A stretch of 64,000 bases of DNA from Minisyncoccia bacterium. Lineage in GTDB: Bacteria > Patescibacteriota > Minisyncoccia > Phycocordibacterales > UBA918. The notes under the pieces were generated by a model. The model saw only the letters and a list, made by a program, of their open reading frames with translations. It searched no databases and was not told where the DNA came from. Position numbers and translations under genes: made by a program. Below, one piece after another: positions 24,147 to 45,767 of this stretch; position 1 is the first letter of the stretch; every line of letters begins with the position of its first letter. The stretch spans positions 12,895 to 76,894 of the forward strand of contig JBGSJJ010000009.1 of assembly GCA_041742075.1 (NCBI GenBank), in the 5' to 3' direction.

Positions 24147-24277
24147 GATGGCTAGAGATGCTTAAAGTATACTATATGGCCCATTTTCGGTATTAGCGAC
24201 CGTCTATTGAAACTATTGGCATTTTCTGTACAATGACAGGCACTCACCGTAGTTTGGTGAGTAGTAGAAGAGGAGAT

Positions 24278-24557
24278 TCCGGTGTAGCTCAGTGGTAGAG
24301 CAGTGCGCTGTCAGCAGGCAGCTCCTATTGGAAACTTTAGGATGAACTCTTTGGGATATCGGTGAACGCTAAGTCTAAAATTTAGATATGCCAATACCGA
24401 GGGAACCACACATGCTGTGTGGGCGCCGTAGAGACTAGATACCGAAGTGCCTACTTTCGCACACGTGCGGATAAGGTAAAGATATAGTCCACGCCTTTGT
24501 GAAAACATAGGAAGTCGTGTAACGCATTGGTCGTAGGTTCGAATCCTACCGCCGGAG
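24278..24557 (+). tRNA. tRNA-Asn(GUU) interrupted by a group I intron in the anticodon loop
   Basis: Exon 1 24278-24311 is TCCGGTG-TA-GCTC-AGTGGTA-GAGC-A-GTGCG-CTGT. Exon 2 24520-24557 is TAA-CGCAT-TGGTC-GTAGG-TTCGAAT-CCTAC-CGCCGGA-G. Spliced, this gives a canonical cloverleaf with anticodon loop CUGUUAA, discriminator G73, CCA not encoded. Confidence 0.6.
24312..24519 (+). ncRNA. group I self-splicing intron (~208 nt)
   Basis: 5' exon ends in U, able to pair GCUGU/GCAGC with the internal guide (U-G at splice site); intron ends in G; conserved cores GTAGAGACTAGA (R-like, 24428-24439) and AAAGATATAGTCC (S-like, 24478-24490) giving P7 GACTA/TAGTC; GGGAA loop. Confidence 0.55.
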
Positions 24558-24980
24558 CAAAATGAACCCCGAAAGGGGTTTTCATTTTGCTTCGGCGAGC
24601 AAGGTGTGGGACACCTTGCGTGTAGGATTCGAAAACCTTGCCAGCTATTTTGCAAAAATAGCGACAAGGTGTACTGAAACTGTAAGTTTCGAAATTCCTA
24701 CTGTTCAAACGAGCAAGCAATACTAATGTTTACATTTGTATTGTTCTTGTGAGTGCAGAATAGAAAGCTTTGCTTACCGCCTAAGCCACAAAACTGAATA
24801 CCAAAAACACTTGAAAGTGTCATGAAATTGGTGCCCTTACGGCCTGATAAAGGTAACCAGCTCCAGTCTAAAAAATGATACTGCTAGTACATACTCACCA
24901 CTACATTATTTCTAGCAATAGTATCCAATAAATGAGCCAATTTGACGTTATTAGATATTGTGAACCTTAAATATTAAATT

Positions 24981-25521
24981 ATGAAAAAAATTATTTTTGC
25001 CTTATTCAAAGACATTGAAGTAGCAGATCAGGCTATTAGCAAGTTGCATACTGAATTAAATATATCGAACGACAAAATTTCGTATATGTACAAAGACAGA
25101 AACGGAAAAAATACTTCTGGTAATGCTGGTGACTCTACTACTATGACCGCTACCGAAGGGGCTGTTAGTGGAGCTGCTACAGGTGGAATGATTGGTGCAG
25201 CCATTGGTTTGGTAGGAATTGCTGGTCTAACTCGGGCCACTTGGACCAATCGTGGTAGCAGGACCCTTGGCTACATTTCTGGGCATCGCTGGTGGTGCAG
25301 GGGCAGTGGTTGGTACGGGTGTTGCGGGGGCAGTTATTGGAGGACTCGTTGGTGCCCTTATCTCCATGGGAGTAAGTGAACCACAGGCGAGGAATTTTGA
25401 AGAACGTGTCGATGCGGGTGACGTGCTTGTTATCATTCATGCTGAAGAAACCGAAGCAGTTAGCGCTATCCTTCGTGAATTTAAAGCAGAAGAAATAACT
25501 GCCACTGAGACGAAGATTTAG
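24981..25521 (+). pseudogene. glycine-zipper membrane/stress protein split by a frameshift
   Basis: ORF 24981-25379 ends in nonsense-like sequence after GAATGGMIGAAIGLVGIAGL while ORF 25252-25521 continues the Gly-zipper (LGIAGGAGAVVGTGVAGAVIGGLVGA) and a conserved C-terminal domain; frame switch near 25230-25260. Confidence 0.45.
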
Positions 25522-25610
25522 GCATAGCCTAAAAGTTAAAGGAATTAAAGTCCCGGCAATAACTAAAATAACCCGTTACAGGGTTATTTTAAGTACCTAA
25601 TAATATAGAG

Positions 25611-25892
25611 CTAAATAGTTATATCTTCCTCCGGTTCTTTTTCATTGACCTTAGCTGCTTCAATATGTTCTTTGGCCGCTTCTACATGTACGGCGGCTGC
25701 TTGCACGTGCACTTCGGCAGCCTCGACGTGGACTTCAGCAACAGTGGCACGAGCCCCGTCAACTTTCTCCTCTACTTTTTCGGCTTCTACCTCCAAGGCT
25801 TCAACTTTATCGTTAGCGAGTACGAGGCACTCGTCATTTTTTTCATTCTCAGTCATAAAATTATGAACGTGATTATTGATAGATGGGGTCAA
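25611..25892 (-). CDS. small acidic protein with tandem AEVHVEAA-type repeats (hypothetical)
   Basis: 93-aa ORF (likely start at the internal MTENEK); triplicated AEVHV(E/Q)AA peptide repeat mirrored by 18-21-nt DNA repeats. Confidence 0.3.
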   Translation of the reverse strand: MTPSINNHVHNFMTENEKNDECLVLANDKVEALEVEAEKVEEKVDGARATVAEVHVEAAEVHVQAAAVHVEAAKEHIEAAKVNEKEPEEDITI

Positions 25893-26042
25893 TCTACATT
25901 AATCATTGTACATGAATTAAGCTCAAAGTGGTACTGTAAAAATGGCTCAAAATATAGGTTGTAATGAATTTATTATTTATACGGCATATACTGTGGACAA
26001 GTTTTTTAAAGATGAATTTGTGAATTAAAAAGTCTAGACGTA

Positions 26043-26072
26043 AGCAAAAAACACCCCTGGGGTGTTTTTTGC
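26043..26072. terminator. bidirectional intrinsic terminator
   Basis: AAAAAACACCCC-TGGGGTGTTTTTTG palindrome with flanking A/T runs, downstream of the minus-strand gene at 26097. Confidence 0.5.
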
Positions 26073-26096
26073 AAATACATTTTACTTATTAGAAAT

Positions 26097-37762: not shown

Positions 37763-38027
37763 TTCTCGGAAATTACTTTGTCGTGCCGCTAATTTTTTCA
37801 GTCACCGTATATGAAATACGGCTTCTTCTAAAATTAACTGCTCTTCGCGTACTTCCTCGAGAATTATCGCTTTGCACCTGATTACATCAAATTGGACAGT
37901 TTTTGAATACGTCTTTGTTCAAAATCACCGTTTGGGAATTTGCCTAATACTTTATTTTGTAATACAGGAAAGTCTTGTCCACCCATGAGGTGACGTGAGA
38001 AGTGCCAGAGCAACATATAATAGATGT

Positions 38028-40802
38028 ATGGCTGAAGGTATCCCAAAAAGATTCTCGTCCCCCGAGGAAGAGATTGCGTATTTGCGTGAGCAGATAGCGA
38101 CGCGCGAGCGTGAGTTGTTTAACCGTTCGGGAGAGACAGACAGGACTGACCACGAAACCGTGGCCAAGGCTGAACTCCATGAGTACGGTACGTTTACCCC
38201 GAACACGGTACTTGAAAAAGACCACCAGCTCAAACCTGACGAGCTCGCTCGGCGGGTCGAGCAGGTTGACTCAGCGAGAGAGCCGGTAGAAGAAATTGTG
38301 CAGATAGCGATAGAAAGGGGTGTTCACAATGCTCTCACGGTACTTGAAAAAACTAAGAACGCCTTCATGACTGACGAAGTACACCGTCGCTTGATTGAGC
38401 ATGTAAAGTCTGGCGCGACCGTTCAGAACTTAAAAGAAGGTGTCCCGCCGTGGCAGGTACTACATATGACGTTGTTTGAAGTGTCACTACCTGAAGTAAA
38501 CGAGCAAAAAGGTAAGTCGTACCAGCTGTCTGAGCTCGTTAGCATGATGGAACAGTTTTATGCTGGTATGCAGAATGTGGGTCAGTATGAAACCAGCACC
38601 CACTACGCGATAGAAATTGCCGTAGCTGATAAGAGTGACGACATTGTTTTTTATGTCGCGGTACCGAGTCAGTATGTCGACCTGTTTCAAAAACATCTTC
38701 TTTCACTGTATCCGCACGCGCATTTGACGGAGCAGATTCATGACTACAACATCTTTGTGGCCGGTGGAAGTTCTTTGGTTGCCAGGGCAGAGCTCAAAAA
38801 GCACCACATCTATCCGATTGCGACGAAAGAATCATTTGAATCTGATCCGCTCGCAGTTATCTTAAACGCCTTTTCAAAAATTGAACGTGAAGGTGGGGGA
38901 GCCGCTTTGCAGTTTGTTATTCGTCGTGCTCCCCAAAAATACACCGGGGTGTATGAAGGGATTATTAAACGCGTTCGTGGCGGTATGAAAGTGTCTGACG
39001 CTATAGCGAGAAGTTCGCTTGGTGGTGAGGTGGTGGCCAGTTTAAAAGAGCTCGTGTTTTCAAATTCTGCTAAGAAAAAAGAAGAAGCACTACCAACCCG
39101 AGACCATATTGACACAGAAGCACTCGAACTGTTTGCAGAGAAAATTAAGCACCCAGTCTTGGACGTTAATATACGTATCGCCGTGTCTTCAACGACTGAG
39201 TCTCGCTCAAAACAAATTTTATCTGAAATCGAATCAACGTTTAATCAGTTTGAACGTACCCAAAGTAATCGATTCGTGTTTTCAGTCTTGAAGGGGAGTG
39301 CACTTACACAAGCCGTGAAAGCATTTTCCTTCAGGGATTTTGTACCCGCGACCGCATTACCGCTGACGCTCCGCGAGCTTGCCACCGTGCTTCACTTTCC
39401 GGGTGCGGGTATCGATAGCTCACCACAGTTTAAGCAATCAAGAGCTAAGACGGCGTCAGCGCCAACCAATACACCAACTACTGGTACGCTCCTTGGTTTT
39501 AACGACCATCGAGGAGAAAAGAAGGATATCTACATCAGTGAGCTCGATCGCATGCGCCATTTCTACATCATTGGTCAGACTGGTACGGGTAAGACGACTC
39601 TGATGAAGAACATGATTGTGCAAGACATCGAGGCTGGTCACGGTGTTTGCTTTATTGACCCTCACGGTACCGACATAGAAGATATCGTGAGTTGTATTCC
39701 TAAGGAACGTGAAAAGGATTTAATTTATTTTGACCCGTCACAATTTGACTCAGTGGTTGGACTCAACATGCTTGAGTATGACGAAAAGAAGCCTGAACAG
39801 AAGACGTTTGTGGTAAACGAACTGTTTTCTATTTTCCAAAAACTCTATGGGGCAAACCCAGAGTCGATGGGCCCGATGTTTGAGCAGTACTTCCGCAACG
39901 CGACGTTGCTTGTGATGGAAGACCCAAGTAGCGGAAATACCCTCATGGATATTAGTCGGGTAATGGCAGACAGTAAGTACCGGCGGATGAAACTAGAGAA
40001 AGCGAAAAATCCAGTCGTGGTGCAGTTTTGGCGTGAGATAGCCACCAAGGCAGGTGGAGAAGCGTCACTTGAAAACATTGTGCCGTACATCGTTTCAAAG
40101 TTCGATGTCTTCACCGCCAACGACTACATGCGACCAATCATTGGTCAACAAAAATCTTCGTTTAACTTCAGGCAGATTATGGATGAGCGGAAGATACTTC
40201 TCGTGAACCTTTCTAAAGGTCGCTTAGGGGAAATTAATGCCAACCTTATCGGTATGATTGTGGTGGGAAAACTTTTGATGGCGGCGCTGTCGCGAGTTGA
40301 TGACGCGAGTCGAAGTTTCCCACCGTTTTACTTACACATGGACGAGTTCCAAAACGTTTCGACGAACTCTATCTCAGCGATTCTGTCTGAAGCGCGCAAG
40401 TATAAGCTTGGCCTGACTATTGCTCACCAATTTATCGCTCAACTGGATGAAAAAATAAAAGAATCGGTGTTTGGAAACGTGGGGTCAATGGCGGCGTTTC
40501 GAGTTGGTCCAGAAGATGCACAGTTTCTTGAGCATCAGTACCACCCAACCTTCACCGCTGCCGACCTCATGAATGTACCCAACCAAACTGCGTATATGCG
40601 GATACTCGCGAGCGGTATTCCGACTAAACCATTTAGTCTCAGCACCTTTGCCCCGCCAGTGACTGACCCAACTCGTGTTCAAGCGCTTATTGCTCAAAGC
40701 AATAGCCGTTACGGACGACCACGAGACGAGATTGAAGCAGAGATTCATAAACGTTATCAAAAAGAAACAGTGCCAACCGAGAATCCGTTTGCTAAGATGT
40801 AA
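38028..40802 (+). CDS. soluble FtsK/HerA/VirD4(TraD/TraG)-superfamily P-loop ATPase with novel ~460-aa N-terminal region
   Basis: Walker A IIGQTGTGKTT followed by CFIDPHG (HerA/T4CP-like), Walker B YLHMDEFQN, sensor TIAHQFIAQL; no TM helices; ATG has no RBS but TATAAT 7 nt upstream (possible leaderless). Confidence 0.7.
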   Translation: MAEGIPKRFSSPEEEIAYLREQIATRERELFNRSGETDRTDHETVAKAELHEYGTFTPNTVLEKDHQLKPDELARRVEQVDSAREPVEEIVQIAIERGVHNALTVLEKTKNAFMTDEVHRRLIEHVKSGATVQNLKEGVPPWQVLHMTLFEVSLPEVNEQKGKSYQLSELVSMMEQFYAGMQNVGQYETSTHYAIEIAVADKSDDIVFYVAVPSQYVDLFQKHLLSLYPHAHLTEQIHDYNIFVAGGSSLVARAELKKHHIYPIATKESFESDPLAVILNAFSKIEREGGGAALQFVIRRAPQKYTGVYEGIIKRVRGGMKVSDAIARSSLGGEVVASLKELVFSNSAKKKEEALPTRDHIDTEALELFAEKIKHPVLDVNIRIAVSSTTESRSKQILSEIESTFNQFERTQSNRFVFSVLKGSALTQAVKAFSFRDFVPATALPLTLRELATVLHFPGAGIDSSPQFKQSRAKTASAPTNTPTTGTLLGFNDHRGEKKDIYISELDRMRHFYIIGQTGTGKTTLMKNMIVQDIEAGHGVCFIDPHGTDIEDIVSCIPKEREKDLIYFDPSQFDSVVGLNMLEYDEKKPEQKTFVVNELFSIFQKLYGANPESMGPMFEQYFRNATLLVMEDPSSGNTLMDISRVMADSKYRRMKLEKAKNPVVVQFWREIATKAGGEASLENIVPYIVSKFDVFTANDYMRPIIGQQKSSFNFRQIMDERKILLVNLSKGRLGEINANLIGMIVVGKLLMAALSRVDDASRSFPPFYLHMDEFQNVSTNSISAILSEARKYKLGLTIAHQFIAQLDEKIKESVFGNVGSMAAFRVGPEDAQFLEHQYHPTFTAADLMNVPNQTAYMRILASGIPTKPFSLSTFAPPVTDPTRVQALIAQSNSRYGRPRDEIEAEIHKRYQKETVPTENPFAKM

Positions 40803-40808
40803 GTACGT

Positions 40809-43800
40809 ATGAAAGAAGAGTGGGGATTAGAAAGTAGAGGGAAAAAATACAACAGACCACAGCGTGGTCGTGTTCGTGATGTAGTTGTACCACCTCCGCT
40901 ACCGAGAGAGGTAGTTAAAGAAAAACCGTCAGCTGATAGTGTTTGGAAAGCGGAGGTTGAGAAGCTGCTAAACAAGACCGAAGTAAATACTGAACAACCA
41001 GAAGCAGTAGGAGAAATACCCGGAGAGGAAGTTTTGCAAGAAGTGACAGAGGAGCATGGTGCTGCCGGTGGTACTGCAGAACTGTCACTGGTAGATCATG
41101 AGGAACGGAAAGAATTAGCTCGAAAAGCCGTGCGCATGTTTAATGAGGTTCGGTTACTTAAAGACTCAATTACGACTCATGAAAGTGGACAGTCGTCACC
41201 TAACCTCGAGATCGATGGCTATGGTGACTTTCAAAATGCATATGCATTACTTAAAGATCAACTTAAACTAGTAGAATGGTCAAAAAATAAAGACGAGGAA
41301 ATTACAGCTGAAGTAGTTAGTGAAATTGAACGTCTTTATGGCGTATTATCAGAAGCTCATACACGAGTCGAACAGGCTGCTCTAGAAAGAGAAATCGAAC
41401 TTGCCTATGAAGATGAAGAAGCGCCGACTGCTCAAATAGAAGCATCAACCTCAGAAATCAACCAGCCAAGCAATCAAAATGAACTAATTACTGGTAAAGA
41501 ACCAGACAAGCATAAGGTGGCGGCTGTAGAATTTACTGTAAAGGAACCTAGCATAAGAGTCGGAAAATTCTACCAAATGCTTATAAATAATAATCTGACT
41601 GAAGTTCGTGTTATAGCGAAAGCAAATGAAGCAAACGGGAGCGCATTTATAGTAAGCCATGAAGTAGATGGTCAAGCATTACTCAGGGAATCTGTGAAAG
41701 CTGATGACCTGATTGAGATCAAAGAAAAATCTACTCCTAGTAACAGATTTGGTAAGCGGTATTCTACACTCGCCAGGACTAGCGACAGCAATCTTGTTTT
41801 AGGAGAGTCTTCTTTAGCTGAAGCTGACCTAGGTGAAGCTATTTCAAGTGAACAAGAAATGGCTACTCTTAAATCTGAAGCAGAAACTACTTCTGGTAAA
41901 AAAGCACATCAAATTGGCCAAAAGTACTTACTACTAATTGGGAATCAGCCTATAGAAGTAACTATAGTTGATGTAGACGAAAATGGTCTAGCTCAAGTCA
42001 CTTACGATAAAGACGGAAAGCACTTTTCAAAGTTTTTTGTCAAACCCGAACAACTTTCAGAAATTGCTCCTCAAACTACGGCTGAACTTAATACGTTTGT
42101 CAGTGAAAAATTGAAAAACGATGAAGGATCTTTTATTAACCAAGTAAGCGAAGTCTTAGAAGAAAATCCTGAACTGACTGAAGAAGTATACAATGCAAAA
42201 GTATTACCACTATTTAAGGAGAGACTTTTGAGTGCTGGCTACACAAGTGACGAGATTCAGAATTTATTCGCCTTAAATTTTCAGTTAGAACAGAAAGCGC
42301 ATAGTAACTTTAATAAGGAAACGGGCACGTTAAAAACTGAAGACGTCTTGAATCGTGCACGCAGTATTGAGGTTAGTATTTTAAATAAAAAACCGAAACA
42401 GGAAGAAAACCCACCTGAACTTCCTGTAAACAACGGTTTCTCAGCTGTGTCTCAAGTAACTACTCCACCCTCTTTTATAAAAGATAACCGAAATCTTAAT
42501 AAACGTGACTCAGTTAGATTTGAGAAATGGCAAAATAAAGAATGGACACCAGGTGAGTATCTGGATTTAGACGAACAAGCGGAACTGTCGAAACAAACGG
42601 ACCCACGAAATATAAGAATAATAACTGAAAATATTTCCGAGGATGAAGTATTTTTGAAAAAAATGCGCGGTGAGTACGAGTCCTTGGTAGCAGAAGCTGA
42701 TAGGCTCGGTCGGAATCCGCTGACACCATCAACACTCAACATTGCGATTATGTCGCTTGATAGAGCAATCAGAGTGTACGAAGAACGACTTGCAAACGAA
42801 GGCCAGTCTGATAATGAAATTACGCAAATGGAATCTGACCGCCTACGCGAAGAACTGATTGAATTGCGAACGCTTATTTGTGAACCTAAGGCACACATTG
42901 AAGGAGAAGTAGAGGCTACCCAGACTGGAACAAACACTGACGAAAATCCACACGTTGAAACAGAAGAGTCCTTAGCTACAGAGCCACCAACACCGGAAGA
43001 TACCGAGCCACCGCGCGAATCACCAGCAGAAGACGAAAAAAGTGCCGAGGCGTTTCTAAAAGGTGAAGTCTTAGGTAAAGAAGTGTCTCTAGCTGAAGTA
43101 GCACTAGGGAAAATGTTTTATGTACCGCGTAAGGCTGGTGGATATACACTTTGTCAGGTTGTAGACATAGATCAAACCTCTGGTGATGTCCAGCTAGCAG
43201 GGCATGACGAAGCTGGAAAATTTACTAAATGGGTACACCACAGTGTACTCTCAGTTGAAGAGCCCTTTAAAGATGGAGAAGTAAAGCCAGATGAACAGCA
43301 GGTAAGAGAAGCTAGGGAGATAGAAGAAGCAGAAGTCGTAGAATCTTTGTCCACTGATACACAGATACCAGAAACAACGAAAGAAAACTATCGACCTAAA
43401 TCAGCTGAACGAATAGCACTTGATGAAAAGCATAAAGAATTTTCTTCCGCTAAGAAAGCGTATTATAGTCAGGAGTTTCTCGCGCAAAAAAAAGAGTTAG
43501 CGCAACTTGAAGCTGAGCTAAAAAATCCAGCTCACTCAGACCGAGCCAGAGATGAAATGCGTGGCCGACGCGATGCGCTCTTTACTGCAGCGGAGCAAAT
43601 TGCCTACCGCTATAAAGAAGCCAAGCAACCGTACGCCGAAGCACTCCAAGAGTATTTGACTAAGAAAGAAACAAAGGCTGGTACTTCACTCACGCCTGAA
43701 CAAGCGAAAGCGATGGTAGGCGGGCGCTTCTTTGGTAAAACCAAAGCCGAGCGGTATACAGGAACTGGTGTCATAGGAAGAGACGGCTTGGAAAAACAAG

Positions 43801-45767
43801 TGGGTTTACTAGACAGCGAGCTACAAAATCCAATTCATACTGAAATGGAAAAAGAAGCGTTGCGGGTTAAACGTCTGGAGCTTGTAGATAGAATTAATAA
43901 AATTCCTGCAGAACACACCGCTGATGTTTCATACAAGTCCTATCGAGAGCAAGAGCTCGCGCTTCGCGAAGCGGTGCTTTCGTTTGAGCAAAAAGGTACT
44001 TTTGTACGTATGAAGGAAAAGTTCGATAAGCTAAATCCAAAAGCAAAAATTGCAGTTGGGGGAGCCATCTTAGGAGCTTCAGTTTGGAATGTGGGTCTTA
44101 TACCGGTTTTAGCTGGTTTGACAGCTGGTGTAGGAGTTCGCTTAGGAGTAAAAAAAGGTGGCTACGCCACGATAGATGCACTCCGGAATCAAGGTAGGCA
44201 AAATAAACTCAGTGCTTTTGACGCCAGTAATTTAGTGCAATTTGAGTCGGCACTCGATAAGGGTGAAGAACGAGAAAAAACAGCGAAGAAGGCTGTCAGT
44301 GGCGTTGCATTCGTGAGTGGAGTAGCAGCTGGTGCTACGGCTGGTCTTGGTGCCAGAGGGGTTGGTGTGGACGAGGTGTTTCAAAATTTAGTGGACAGTG
44401 TGACGCAAAAATCAGGTACTGGCTCAGGAACTTTTGTTCCTAGTGCTGATCAAGCGCCATCGATAACTCAAAGTGAAGTCCCTCTTACATACGAAAAAGA
44501 TCCGATTGTAATTACCATCGAACCTGGTCAGTCCGGGTACGTCGAATTAGATGGAGTAGTAGCAACCCCAGATGCGTCAGCGACTAATGTTGCTGGTGAG
44601 GGTGCTGCAATCGGGGGAGACGAAGTGGTGAAGGAGGTTCCTGTCGCGGATTTGCAGGTAGAAGTGTCTGAAGCACCAGCTCGCAAAGAAATGACGGGTA
44701 CAGAACCTCAAGCTTTCGAAAAAGGAAATATTGCACCGGTAGAAGAGGTTGTAAAGAAACCGCTTGAGTTTAGCAGTGCGGAACGCTACCAGACACATTT
44801 TCACACTGTCCCGAACCCTGACAAAATTGACCAAAATGCTCCAGCCTTTGAAAAAGCAAGTACTGTGTCTGACATTCTCTTTGAGCGCTGGAAAGTTGGT
44901 CAGTTTGACCATCTTGGGTGGGTGCCACAGCATGGGGAAGTGAACGAGACGGAATTTTTGCAAGTGATGAATGAAGCAATTCATACTGCCTCTGCAGACA
45001 CTCTCAGAGCAATGATGATTGATAGTGGAGACATTGATGTTGTGTATCCCGGTGAAAGGCTCGACATGGTACCAATTCTTTATCAAATGTTTCCACCAGA
45101 AGTCAGTAGTACCGTTAGTCAAGCTTCTGAGGCAGTCTCTTTGTCGCCTGAACCAGAAGTTACTCCTACGGTTGAAGCCGCACCTCTCTCTTCTGTGAAC
45201 GAAGAGTTAACAGTTCAGTCTACTCTAGTACCGGTAGAAGTAGATGTGTCACCTAATGATCTTGAATCAGTTGTTTCTTACGCGAATCGGTATGATTCGC
45301 TCGAGGCAAACCAGCTTGCAGAAATTATTACCGAAGCAAAAGAGCGGGTTATGGAAAATATGAGTGAGTCAGACACGATGGCGCTCTCGGCTGAAGAAAT
45401 TAATGAGCGGATTAAAACTGAAGTTGATGTGCTTGCCACCACGGAGCTTATAGCTAAAACACTTAACGCCAGTGGTCAGTCTGGTGAGGGAGTGGTCGAG
45501 TTTATGAATGTCGCTTATCAAGATATCAAAAACTTTCCTCCTGAAAAAGCCGTTGGAATTGACTTTGAGACTGCTAAGTTTCTCTTTAATTACGCTCAGT
45601 CTCAATTAGATTCACTCAGTCAAGAAGTTAAGAGTCAAATAGCTTCTCCAAGCTTAAGCAATCTAGTCGAAGCGCTGGTGCGAGATGGCCGACTAGAAGT
45701 ATCAGGTGACCAACATACGCTCGTACAGCCAGGAAGTCGAAATCACGTGCTAAACCTCAGAAACTAA
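40809..45767 (+). CDS. giant (1652 aa) acidic coiled-coil protein with central Gly-rich hydrophobic segment
   Basis: 7-nt gap after the ATPase gene; Glu/Lys-rich low complexity with long heptad-like stretches; residues ~1075-1200 contain AVGGAILGASVWNVGLIPVLAGLTAGVGV and VAFVSGVAAGATAGLGARGVG. Confidence 0.6.
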   Translation: MKEEWGLESRGKKYNRPQRGRVRDVVVPPPLPREVVKEKPSADSVWKAEVEKLLNKTEVNTEQPEAVGEIPGEEVLQEVTEEHGAAGGTAELSLVDHEERKELARKAVRMFNEVRLLKDSITTHESGQSSPNLEIDGYGDFQNAYALLKDQLKLVEWSKNKDEEITAEVVSEIERLYGVLSEAHTRVEQAALEREIELAYEDEEAPTAQIEASTSEINQPSNQNELITGKEPDKHKVAAVEFTVKEPSIRVGKFYQMLINNNLTEVRVIAKANEANGSAFIVSHEVDGQALLRESVKADDLIEIKEKSTPSNRFGKRYSTLARTSDSNLVLGESSLAEADLGEAISSEQEMATLKSEAETTSGKKAHQIGQKYLLLIGNQPIEVTIVDVDENGLAQVTYDKDGKHFSKFFVKPEQLSEIAPQTTAELNTFVSEKLKNDEGSFINQVSEVLEENPELTEEVYNAKVLPLFKERLLSAGYTSDEIQNLFALNFQLEQKAHSNFNKETGTLKTEDVLNRARSIEVSILNKKPKQEENPPELPVNNGFSAVSQVTTPPSFIKDNRNLNKRDSVRFEKWQNKEWTPGEYLDLDEQAELSKQTDPRNIRIITENISEDEVFLKKMRGEYESLVAEADRLGRNPLTPSTLNIAIMSLDRAIRVYEERLANEGQSDNEITQMESDRLREELIELRTLICEPKAHIEGEVEATQTGTNTDENPHVETEESLATEPPTPEDTEPPRESPAEDEKSAEAFLKGEVLGKEVSLAEVALGKMFYVPRKAGGYTLCQVVDIDQTSGDVQLAGHDEAGKFTKWVHHSVLSVEEPFKDGEVKPDEQQVREAREIEEAEVVESLSTDTQIPETTKENYRPKSAERIALDEKHKEFSSAKKAYYSQEFLAQKKELAQLEAELKNPAHSDRARDEMRGRRDALFTAAEQIAYRYKEAKQPYAEALQEYLTKKETKAGTSLTPEQAKAMVGGRFFGKTKAERYTGTGVIGRDGLEKQVGLLDSELQNPIHTEMEKEALRVKRLELVDRINKIPAEHTADVSYKSYREQELALREAVLSFEQKGTFVRMKEKFDKLNPKAKIAVGGAILGASVWNVGLIPVLAGLTAGVGVRLGVKKGGYATIDALRNQGRQNKLSAFDASNLVQFESALDKGEEREKTAKKAVSGVAFVSGVAAGATAGLGARGVGVDEVFQNLVDSVTQKSGTGSGTFVPSADQAPSITQSEVPLTYEKDPIVITIEPGQSGYVELDGVVATPDASATNVAGEGAAIGGDEVVKEVPVADLQVEVSEAPARKEMTGTEPQAFEKGNIAPVEEVVKKPLEFSSAERYQTHFHTVPNPDKIDQNAPAFEKASTVSDILFERWKVGQFDHLGWVPQHGEVNETEFLQVMNEAIHTASADTLRAMMIDSGDIDVVYPGERLDMVPILYQMFPPEVSSTVSQASEAVSLSPEPEVTPTVEAAPLSSVNEELTVQSTLVPVEVDVSPNDLESVVSYANRYDSLEANQLAEIITEAKERVMENMSESDTMALSAEEINERIKTEVDVLATTELIAKTLNASGQSGEGVVEFMNVAYQDIKNFPPEKAVGIDFETAKFLFNYAQSQLDSLSQEVKSQIASPSLSNLVEALVRDGRLEVSGDQHTLVQPGSRNHVLNLRN

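Follow-up and report, generated by a model that had tools for sequence, protein, structure and literature searches.

The four classical types of bacterial tRNA intron were extended to 21 by Williams (2020, bioRxiv 10.1101/2020.01.27.920355), and a later survey (Nakagawa et al. 2026, mSystems, PMC13011429) traces to this preprint the type 'Asn.4Ug', sometimes mis-scored as 'Thr.2Ug'. In 95 complete Patescibacteria genomes, that survey found group I introns inserted between nucleotides 35 and 36 (hereafter 35/36) in 15 tRNA-Asn(GUU) and three tRNA-Asp(GUC) genes, the Asn(GUU) type making up 15 of the 22 intron-containing tRNA genes of these bacteria; across 4,934 complete genomes, 28 introns occupied this site, 19 of them in Patescibacteria. 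The same authors put all Patescibacteria tRNA introns in subgroup IA, demonstrated in vitro that one Asn and one Asp intron splice accurately and GTP-dependently at 35/36 and that a G-to-C change of the terminal nucleotide abolishes this splicing, and documented that ARAGORN/tFind mis-call such genes as tRNA-Thr(UGU) split at 33/34 (PMC13011429). Here, we analyzed a 64,000-nucleotide stretch of contig JBGSJJ010000009.1 (the window), in which positions 24278-24557 of the plus strand, judged from the sequence, very probably represent a tRNA-Asn(GUU) gene that is interrupted between U35 and U36 by a 208-nt group I ribozyme lacking an open reading frame (ORF). The arrangement has already been described, and its splicing demonstrated, in work of 2020-2026 on the same bacterial group. 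The locus is therefore a further example and not a discovery, since its kind is published and the published data contain an intron with the same architecture. The initial annotation of the window had considered an Asn(GUU) host with a 35/36 insertion unusual compared with the classical Leu, fMet, Ile and Arg cases, a view that Asn.4Ug and the 15 of 22 genes mentioned above have made out of date.

Layout of the split tRNA gene

Upon in-silico joining of the exons, with 24312-24519 removed, we obtained a canonical cloverleaf of 72 nt, which ARAGORN called as tRNA-Asn(gtt). A permissive Rfam scan of positions 24150-24700 returned a match to the full RF00028 (Intron_gpI) model (1-253) at 24301-24512, with 48.8 bits and E=2e-11, together with partial RF00005 matches on both sides of the intron that covered the tRNA 5' half and the T arm. 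The alignment to the covariance model (CM) and the covariation described below recovered the features of a group I core, namely the P3-P8 and P4-P6 domains, P7, J8/7 and the P3/P7 pseudoknot, in a compact form that runs from P1 to P9 without P7.1/P7.2 or P5abc. The initial annotation had already proposed a tRNA-Asn(GUU) host with 24312-24519 as the intervening sequence, a group I intron inserted at 35/36, a P1 that has U·G at the splice site and GCAGC at intron nucleotides 7-11, a terminal G, a P7 of GACTA/TAGTC drawn from R-like and S-like cores, and an intron too short to accommodate a homing endonuclease; each of these elements was recovered at the positions given below. Of its suggested check with the RF00028 covariance model, the full-model match held up, and the score stayed under the gathering threshold of 50. 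The predicted features of the locus are as follows.

24207-24234, plus strand: promoter-like site, TTGAAA, 16-nt spacer, TACAAT; ends 44 nt 5' of the tRNA start; 10/12 in a consensus scan
24278-24311, plus strand: tRNA-Asn exon 1, 34 nt, TCCGGTGTAGCTCAGTGGTAGAGCAGTGCGCTGT, ending ...GCGCUGU; acceptor 5' strand (U1...), D arm, anticodon-stem 5' strand, C32, U33, G34 and U35
24312-24519, plus strand: group I intron, 208 nt, starting CAGCAGGCAGC and ending ...GUCGUG, no ORF
24308-24322, plus strand: P1, with C32-G24321, U33-A24320, G34-C24319, the U35·G24318 wobble and the intron pair C24312-G24317; loop AGCA
24324-24341, plus strand: P2 hairpin, CCUAUUG, GAAA loop, CUUUAGG; 7/7 pairs with compensatory changes in the family
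24349-24354, plus strand: P3 5' strand, CUUUGG, pairing with 24442-24447; 6 pairs, 4 of them compensatory, 100% of cells paired
24359-24400, plus strand: P4, UCGGUG (24359-24364) with UACCGA (24395-24400), enclosing P5 (24368-24391)
24401-24427, plus strand: P6, GG (24401-24402) with CC (24426-24427), and P6a (24406-24412 with 24416-24422), from the CM alignment and RNAalifold
24433-24437, plus strand: P7 5' strand, GACUA, of the guanosine-binding helix, within conserved GUAGAGACUAGA; invariant in 26/26, aligned to the Rfam core
24442-24447, plus strand: P3 3' strand, CCGAAG
24448-24478, plus strand: P8, UGCC (24448-24451) with GGUA (24475-24478), and a distal hairpin (24458-24469); 3/4 base pairs covary
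24479-24489, plus strand: J8/7 AAGAUA and P7 3' strand UAGUC (24485-24489); family-invariant, aligned to the Rfam core AAGAUAUAGUC
24494-24511, plus strand: P9 hairpin, CCUUUGU, GAAA loop, ACAUAGG; 7 pairs, 6 of them compensatory
24519, plus strand: terminal guanosine (omega-G), last intron nucleotide before U36
24520-24557, plus strand: tRNA-Asn exon 2, 38 nt, TAACGCATTGGTCGTAGGTTCGAATCCTACCGCCGGAG, starting UAACGCAU; U36, A37, A38, anticodon-stem 3' strand, variable loop, T arm, acceptor 3' strand (A72) and discriminator G73
24564-24591, plus strand: intrinsic-terminator-like hairpin GAACCCC-GAAA-GGGGTTT (24564-24581), followed by a T-rich run

The P1 guide GGCAG(C) lies at 24317-24322, its GCAGC portion corresponding to 24318-24322. 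The R-like and S-like cores are GTAGAGACTAGA at 24428-24439 and AAAGATATAGTCC at 24478-24490, and P7, in which GACUA (24433-24437) pairs with UAGUC (24485-24489), was added by hand as a pseudoknot; only GAUA (24438-24441) separates P7 from P3'. At the 3' end of the gene, CAA directly follows G73 (24557-24560), so that CCA is not gene-encoded and a CCA-adding enzyme must supply it. The split gene looks like a transcription unit of its own because the promoter-like site and the terminator bracket it, and transcription would start and stop at these two sites, the position of 24207-24234 being suggestive of a promoter role. Default ARAGORN found no tRNA in the 64-kb window, neither the split gene nor any other, and no second copy of the tRNA 3' end (allowing up to three mismatches) and no att-like repeat marking an integrated island were found in the window. 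The public gene calls on the contig list no gene at the position of the split tRNA.

Relatives and covariation

We next compared the locus with relatives, which were collected from one genome per species by scanning for AGATATAGTC followed by a GGTCNNNGGTTCRA T-arm within 25-55 nt; at least 119 loci were retrieved, and counts of relatives refer to the loci listed. By their 3' junction, 77 of the 119 were Asn-like and 17 Asp-like. In at least 50 Asn-type split genes (49 loci and the window's own), the 5' exon ended ...CUGU, the intron ended ...G and the 3' exon began UAA..., with U1-A72/G73 at the acceptor end; the compact core was present in 26 of these 50, including the copy studied here, the remainder carrying the longer core of the literature type. 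In blastn searches with exons and intron, the closest of the loci listed was L058 (Lloydbacteria), with 80% identity over 290 nt and E=4e-66, and L005, L044, L092, L027 and L043 followed at 75-79% identity. The exons of the window's gene match those of the four nearest relatives listed, L058, L005, L092 and L044, at all positions but one compensatory T-stem pair (U-A versus C-G), which speaks for selection on the exons; exon 1 is identical in these four loci from metagenome-assembled genomes (MAGs), two of which are labelled Lloydbacteria and two unclassified.

The secondary structure was then examined in alignment A2, which comprises 26 compact introns, including the published one of GCA_030583765.1, and has a consensus of 53 pairs. 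RNAalifold recovered the tRNA anticodon stem together with P1, P2, P3, P4, P5, P6, P8 and P9. Standard pairs filled 96.3% of the alignment cells, compared with 37-42% when the partners were slid by 1-3 columns, and compensatory changes on both sides occurred in 32 of the 53 pairs; none of 500 shuffles reached any of the observed measures. The four exon pairs of P1 were invariant in 26/26 sequences and the intron extension pair covaried (GC in 17, CG in 5, UG in 3 and AU in 1), the closing pair of P4 swapped from A-U to U-A (19 versus 6 sequences), and the pairs of P5 covaried as well. Of the 53 consensus pairs, 50 are intact in the present copy, within a family range of 46-53 that leaves aside the N-masked L059 (36), and the copy departs from the family at none of the invariant columns of alignments A1 and A2. 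A run of N lies in the P4-P6 region of the L059 intron (L059:77-302, Harrisonbacteria), so that its pair counts in A2 are incomplete. The G directly 5' of TAA was invariant in all 26 rows of A2, partly by construction, as the pattern used to select the loci required that G.

A tblastn comparison of 11 neighbouring proteins with the 119 loci found no shared gene neighbourhood, and no tRNA-Asn was found beside the CLC channel gene on the contigs of two closer homologues of the window's CLC channel (53% and 49% identity). In MAG GFS_1518, one intron 3' end with its exon 2 recurs on two contigs (L005 and L039), probably because the contig ends overlap at the split tRNA and not because there are two genes. 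Split tRNA-Asn genes of the Patescibacteria type were also present in MAGs labelled Gammaproteobacteria, Bdellovibrionales or Bacteroidia (L004, L016, L027, L028, L041, L043, L048, L063, L067, L076, L085, L087, L102 and L111), many of which are automated 'binchicken' co-assemblies; either the labels of these MAGs cannot be trusted or the type has a wider distribution than the published survey of complete genomes suggests. Omnitrophota and Planctomycetales MAGs have almost the same tRNA-Asn (UCCCCCUUAGCUCAGUCGGUAGAGCGAGUGGCUGU...) in common, and the introns that interrupt it at 35/36 are of the other core type and range from 199 to 431 nt (L031, L042, L052, L060, L072, L090, L095, L119 and L120).

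Splice register and rival explanations

A U·G wobble in P1 marks the 5' splice site of group I introns. The 5' splice site is placed after U35 because the wobble sits there, while U33 pairs with A in 26/26 sequences; given this site, G24519 is the sole terminal G that yields a seven-base anticodon loop. The comparative evidence therefore places the insertion, as read from the alignments, between nucleotides 35 and 36 and not between 33 and 34. On the proposed mechanism, one precursor would be transcribed from the promoter-like site to the hairpin terminator, and its intron would fold into P1-P9, with the guide GGCAG pairing with C32-U33-G34-U35 and the first intron base and with U35 held in the wobble. 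A free guanosine bound in P7 would attack after U35, after which G24519 would take the place of this guanosine and the freed 3'-OH of U35 would attack after G24519. The joined exons would form the 72-nt tRNA with anticodon GUU, to which CCA would be added later. Splicing of this particular copy would be expected by analogy with the in-vitro splicing of a homologous tRNA-Asn intron (PMC13011429).

The register could alternatively lie two nucleotides upstream, with an intron between U33 and nucleotide 34 that spans 24310-24517 and a mature tRNA-Thr(UGU). Intron-aware ARAGORN picked this option, reporting tRNA-Thr(tgt) i(33,208) here and an equal call for most relatives, removal of 24310-24517 in silico yields tRNA-Thr(tgt), and in this register, too, the 5' cut follows a U and the 3' cut follows a G (24517). 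However, U33 sits in an invariant Watson-Crick pair of P1, and it is U35 that holds the wobble typical of group I 5' splice sites; the G needed at the 3' cut is A or U in 8 of the 50 Asn-type split genes, and in 3 of the 50 the anticodon would not be UGU. Whole-tRNA identity proved too coarse as an isotype test, with long Ser tRNAs ranking at the top, and the signature of the acceptor end was informative instead. U1-A72 and G73 agree with three intron-less tRNA-Asn genes in the fetched loci (UCC...GGAG-G73 ends), unlike the eight tRNA-Thr genes in the same loci, which start with GCC and end with GGCT (G1-C72). The ARAGORN/tFind call is moreover the documented mis-call, and the sequenced spliced homologue is an Asn tRNA joined at 35/36 (PMC13011429). 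We thus consider the Thr register highly unlikely, and the initial annotation had also ranked it as the weaker one.

Several observations weigh against an active split tRNA-Asn gene. The RF00028 score falls 1.2 bits short of the gathering threshold of 50, which is why the Rfam scan of the whole window at gathering thresholds reported nothing. The folding energy of the single sequence is unremarkable (z=-1.5), P7 and the four exon pairs of P1 never vary and so provide no covariation evidence of their own, and the promoter-like site is weak, being a consensus match of a kind that occurs 2.2 times on average when the region is shuffled. In addition, this copy carries two U-U mismatches in P2 and one in P9, and the tRNA search covered the 64-kb window, so that an intact tRNA-Asn could lie elsewhere in the genome. 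The score, the mismatches and the scope of the search would suit a decaying relic, that is, an intron that no longer splices within a pseudogene tRNA-Asn whose function is served by an intact gene elsewhere. Such decay sits poorly with a copy that has kept the shared base at every invariant column and is no worse paired than its relatives, and whose exons form a perfect cloverleaf that differs from those of relatives by the single compensatory pair; the promoter-like site and terminator are also in place, and the window contained no other detectable tRNA. A relic is therefore very unlikely in our judgment. That the likeness to a group I intron arose by chance in ordinary intergenic or protein-coding sequence would fit the blank gathering scan and the two overlapping minus-strand mechanical ORFs (24311-24667 and 24451-24720), yet neither ORF has a Pfam match and the public calls place no gene there. 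The RF00028 E-value, the blastn homology to the related loci and the strong covariation refute this explanation, to which we assign next to no probability. With regard to the score itself, the Rfam gathering threshold is an operational rather than a biological cut-off. The RF00028 seed contains no bacterial sequence (Williams 2020, bioRxiv 10.1101/2020.01.27.920355).

The locus, which is probably a required tRNA-Asn gene, is missed by standard annotation: default ARAGORN and Rfam at gathering thresholds are blank, and intron-aware ARAGORN says tRNA-Thr(UGU). In a genome with such a locus, tRNA-Asn would be counted as missing and tRNA-Thr as present in one copy too many, and completeness estimates of small genomes of the candidate phyla radiation (CPR) are distorted as a consequence, a point that is already in print (PMC13011429).

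Genomic surroundings and comparison with known introns

The split gene is surrounded by ordinary chromosomal genes, which encode a P-type ATPase, a UDG-superfamily glycosylase, Fpg, a CLC channel, a GFA-family protein and a CitMHS transporter. The best homologues of the CLC channel are approximately 50% identical, the nearest reaching 53% in 5.8 billion proteins, and every organism-named homologue above rank 100 belongs to Patescibacteria, Paceibacterota or Parcubacteria. The larger proteins of the window match NCBIfam far below equivalog cut-offs or not at all, and the housekeeping proteins tested (PriA, PBP2, FtsI-like and a DEAD-box helicase) were all far below these cut-offs. Going by its predicted proteins, the lineage is deep-branching and poorly sampled. 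The host would belong to the CPR/Patescibacteria, for which Asn 35/36 introns are an enrichment and not a strict requirement, and its place is probably near Lloydbacteria, as the tRNA-Asn exons, but for the one T-stem pair, are shared with the four MAG loci of which two bear that label.

Just 3' of the tRNA terminator, positions 24599-24700 hold imperfect direct and inverted repeats (AGGTGTGGGACACCTTGC / AGGATTCGAAAACCTTGC and TGTAGGATTCGAAA / TGTAAGTTTCGAAA), including a 36-nt palindrome around 24635-24670 and a part that loosely resembles a tRNA T arm (GGATTCGAAAACC); the permissive scan of 24150-24700 gave no Rfam match in this cluster. The roughly 1.5 kb after the tRNA (24558-26096) contain short ORFs only, of 132 aa (sub-threshold TAA-Trp-ring), 89 aa (sub-threshold DUF1269) and 93 aa (no match), a low coding density for a small genome. 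Further away, at 37995-45767, a 935-aa protein with a weak match to TraD/VirD4-type coupling ATPases is directly followed by a 1652-aa ORF without NCBIfam match, and the two together may encode machinery for secretion or DNA uptake such as CPR genomes commonly have.

The nearest published intron is that of the Paceibacteria genome GCA_030583765.1, a 205-nt Asn intron with the same compact architecture, as given in Table S3 of PMC13011429. The two introns have in common the host tRNA, the insertion site, the U-ending 5' exon, ...GUG before UAA and the guide GCAGC that pairs with CUGU. Both are ORF-less and approximately 205-210 nt long, share the core strings GGGAUAxCGGUGAA, CCGUAGAGACUAGAUACC and AAGAUAUAGUCCAC, and are collinear over their full length at 68% intron and 81% exon identity; ARAGORN mis-calls both alike as Thr(UGU) at 33/34. 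They differ in the distal sequences of P2, P5, P6a and P8, by compensatory changes. Relative to the published Patescibacteria type, the present copy comes from a different genome, and the nearest relatives found are only 75-80% identical. What the locus adds is one divergent example of the compact form, which together with the 25 aligned relatives gives a covariation-supported structure for that form.

The in-vitro-validated intron of the Saccharimonadia genome GCA_016700035.1 (234 nt, PMC13011429) agrees with our copy in host tRNA (83% exon identity), insertion site, P1 guide, terminal G and overall helix order, with an intron identity of 59%. It carries an extra hairpin, P7.1, between P7 and P3', where our copy has nothing but GAUA, and its P3-P4-P6 core is of the GGUGAAUUGCGGGAA / UAAUCCGCAGCCAAG type, that of our copy being GGGAUAUCGGUGAA / AAUACCGAGGGAAC. 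Given the homology, the same two-step, guanosine-initiated splicing would be expected in the window's gene.

The compact core is also found in other host tRNAs. Table S3 of the survey includes introns with the same core at 35/36 of an Asp gene (Paceibacteria GCA_023898525.1) and of a Tyr(GUA) gene (Doudnabacteria GCA_016699995.1), which, as entered there, have the guide GCAGC and the ...GUG end (PMC13011429). Their intron identity to our copy is 65-66%. The host tRNA is a different one, and the 3' exon starts with CAC (Asp) or AAA (Tyr) instead of UAA; in the listed Asp intron, the 3' 45 nt are nearly identical to those of our copy (GGUAAAGAUAUAGUCCACGCCUUUGUGAAAACAUUGGAAGAAGUG versus ...ACAUAGGAAGUCGUG). 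Among the matches listed, the compact core with guide GCAGC was present in 34 Asn-like and 16 Asp-like loci, the latter with the ...GUG 3' end and split at 35/36 of tRNA-Asp(GUC); 15 of them are L010, L012, L023-L025, L045, L050, L056, L057, L064, L070, L071, L079, L089 and L091. As the same core occurs in Asn, Asp and Tyr hosts, one intron lineage occupies several tRNAs with GUN anticodons.

With respect to the subgroup, the P7.1/P7.2 elements that define IA between P7 and P3' are absent from our copy, and P7.1 is likewise absent from the published GCA_030583765.1 intron, so that its presence is no hallmark of the Asn 35/36 class. Our copy fits the IC3 architecture, a compact core that lacks P5abc, P2.1 and P7.1/7.2, a likeness in architecture rather than a score against subgroup models. 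It is conceivable, and we put it forward tentatively as a rather doubtful proposal, that the compact P7.1-less intron represents a separate structural lineage, as opposed to a typical IA intron, and moved among Asn, Asp and Tyr tRNA genes by reverse splicing or recombination at CUGU, without a homing endonuclease. Transfer among GUN tRNAs may follow from the guide GCAG reading C32-U33-G34-U35, which is common to Asn, Asp and Tyr tRNAs, and the 34 Asn-like and 16 Asp-like loci together with the published Tyr gene allow such transfer; the published survey may already imply this point.

In the Azoarcus intron, GUAGAGACUAGA is followed directly by P3'. The classical IC3 introns of Azoarcus tRNA-Ile(CAU), Agrobacterium tRNA-Arg(CCU), cyanobacterial tRNA-Leu(UAA) and tRNA-fMet, to which we liken our copy by architecture, are compact like it (approximately 200-250 nt), ORF-less, located in the anticodon loop and built from P1-P9 without P5abc or P7.1/7.2, with P3' right after P7. 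They differ from it in their guide. Their host tRNAs and insertion sites differ as well, the latter being 33/34, 34/35 and 36/37 as opposed to the 35/36 site of the window's tRNA-Asn gene (PMC13011429).

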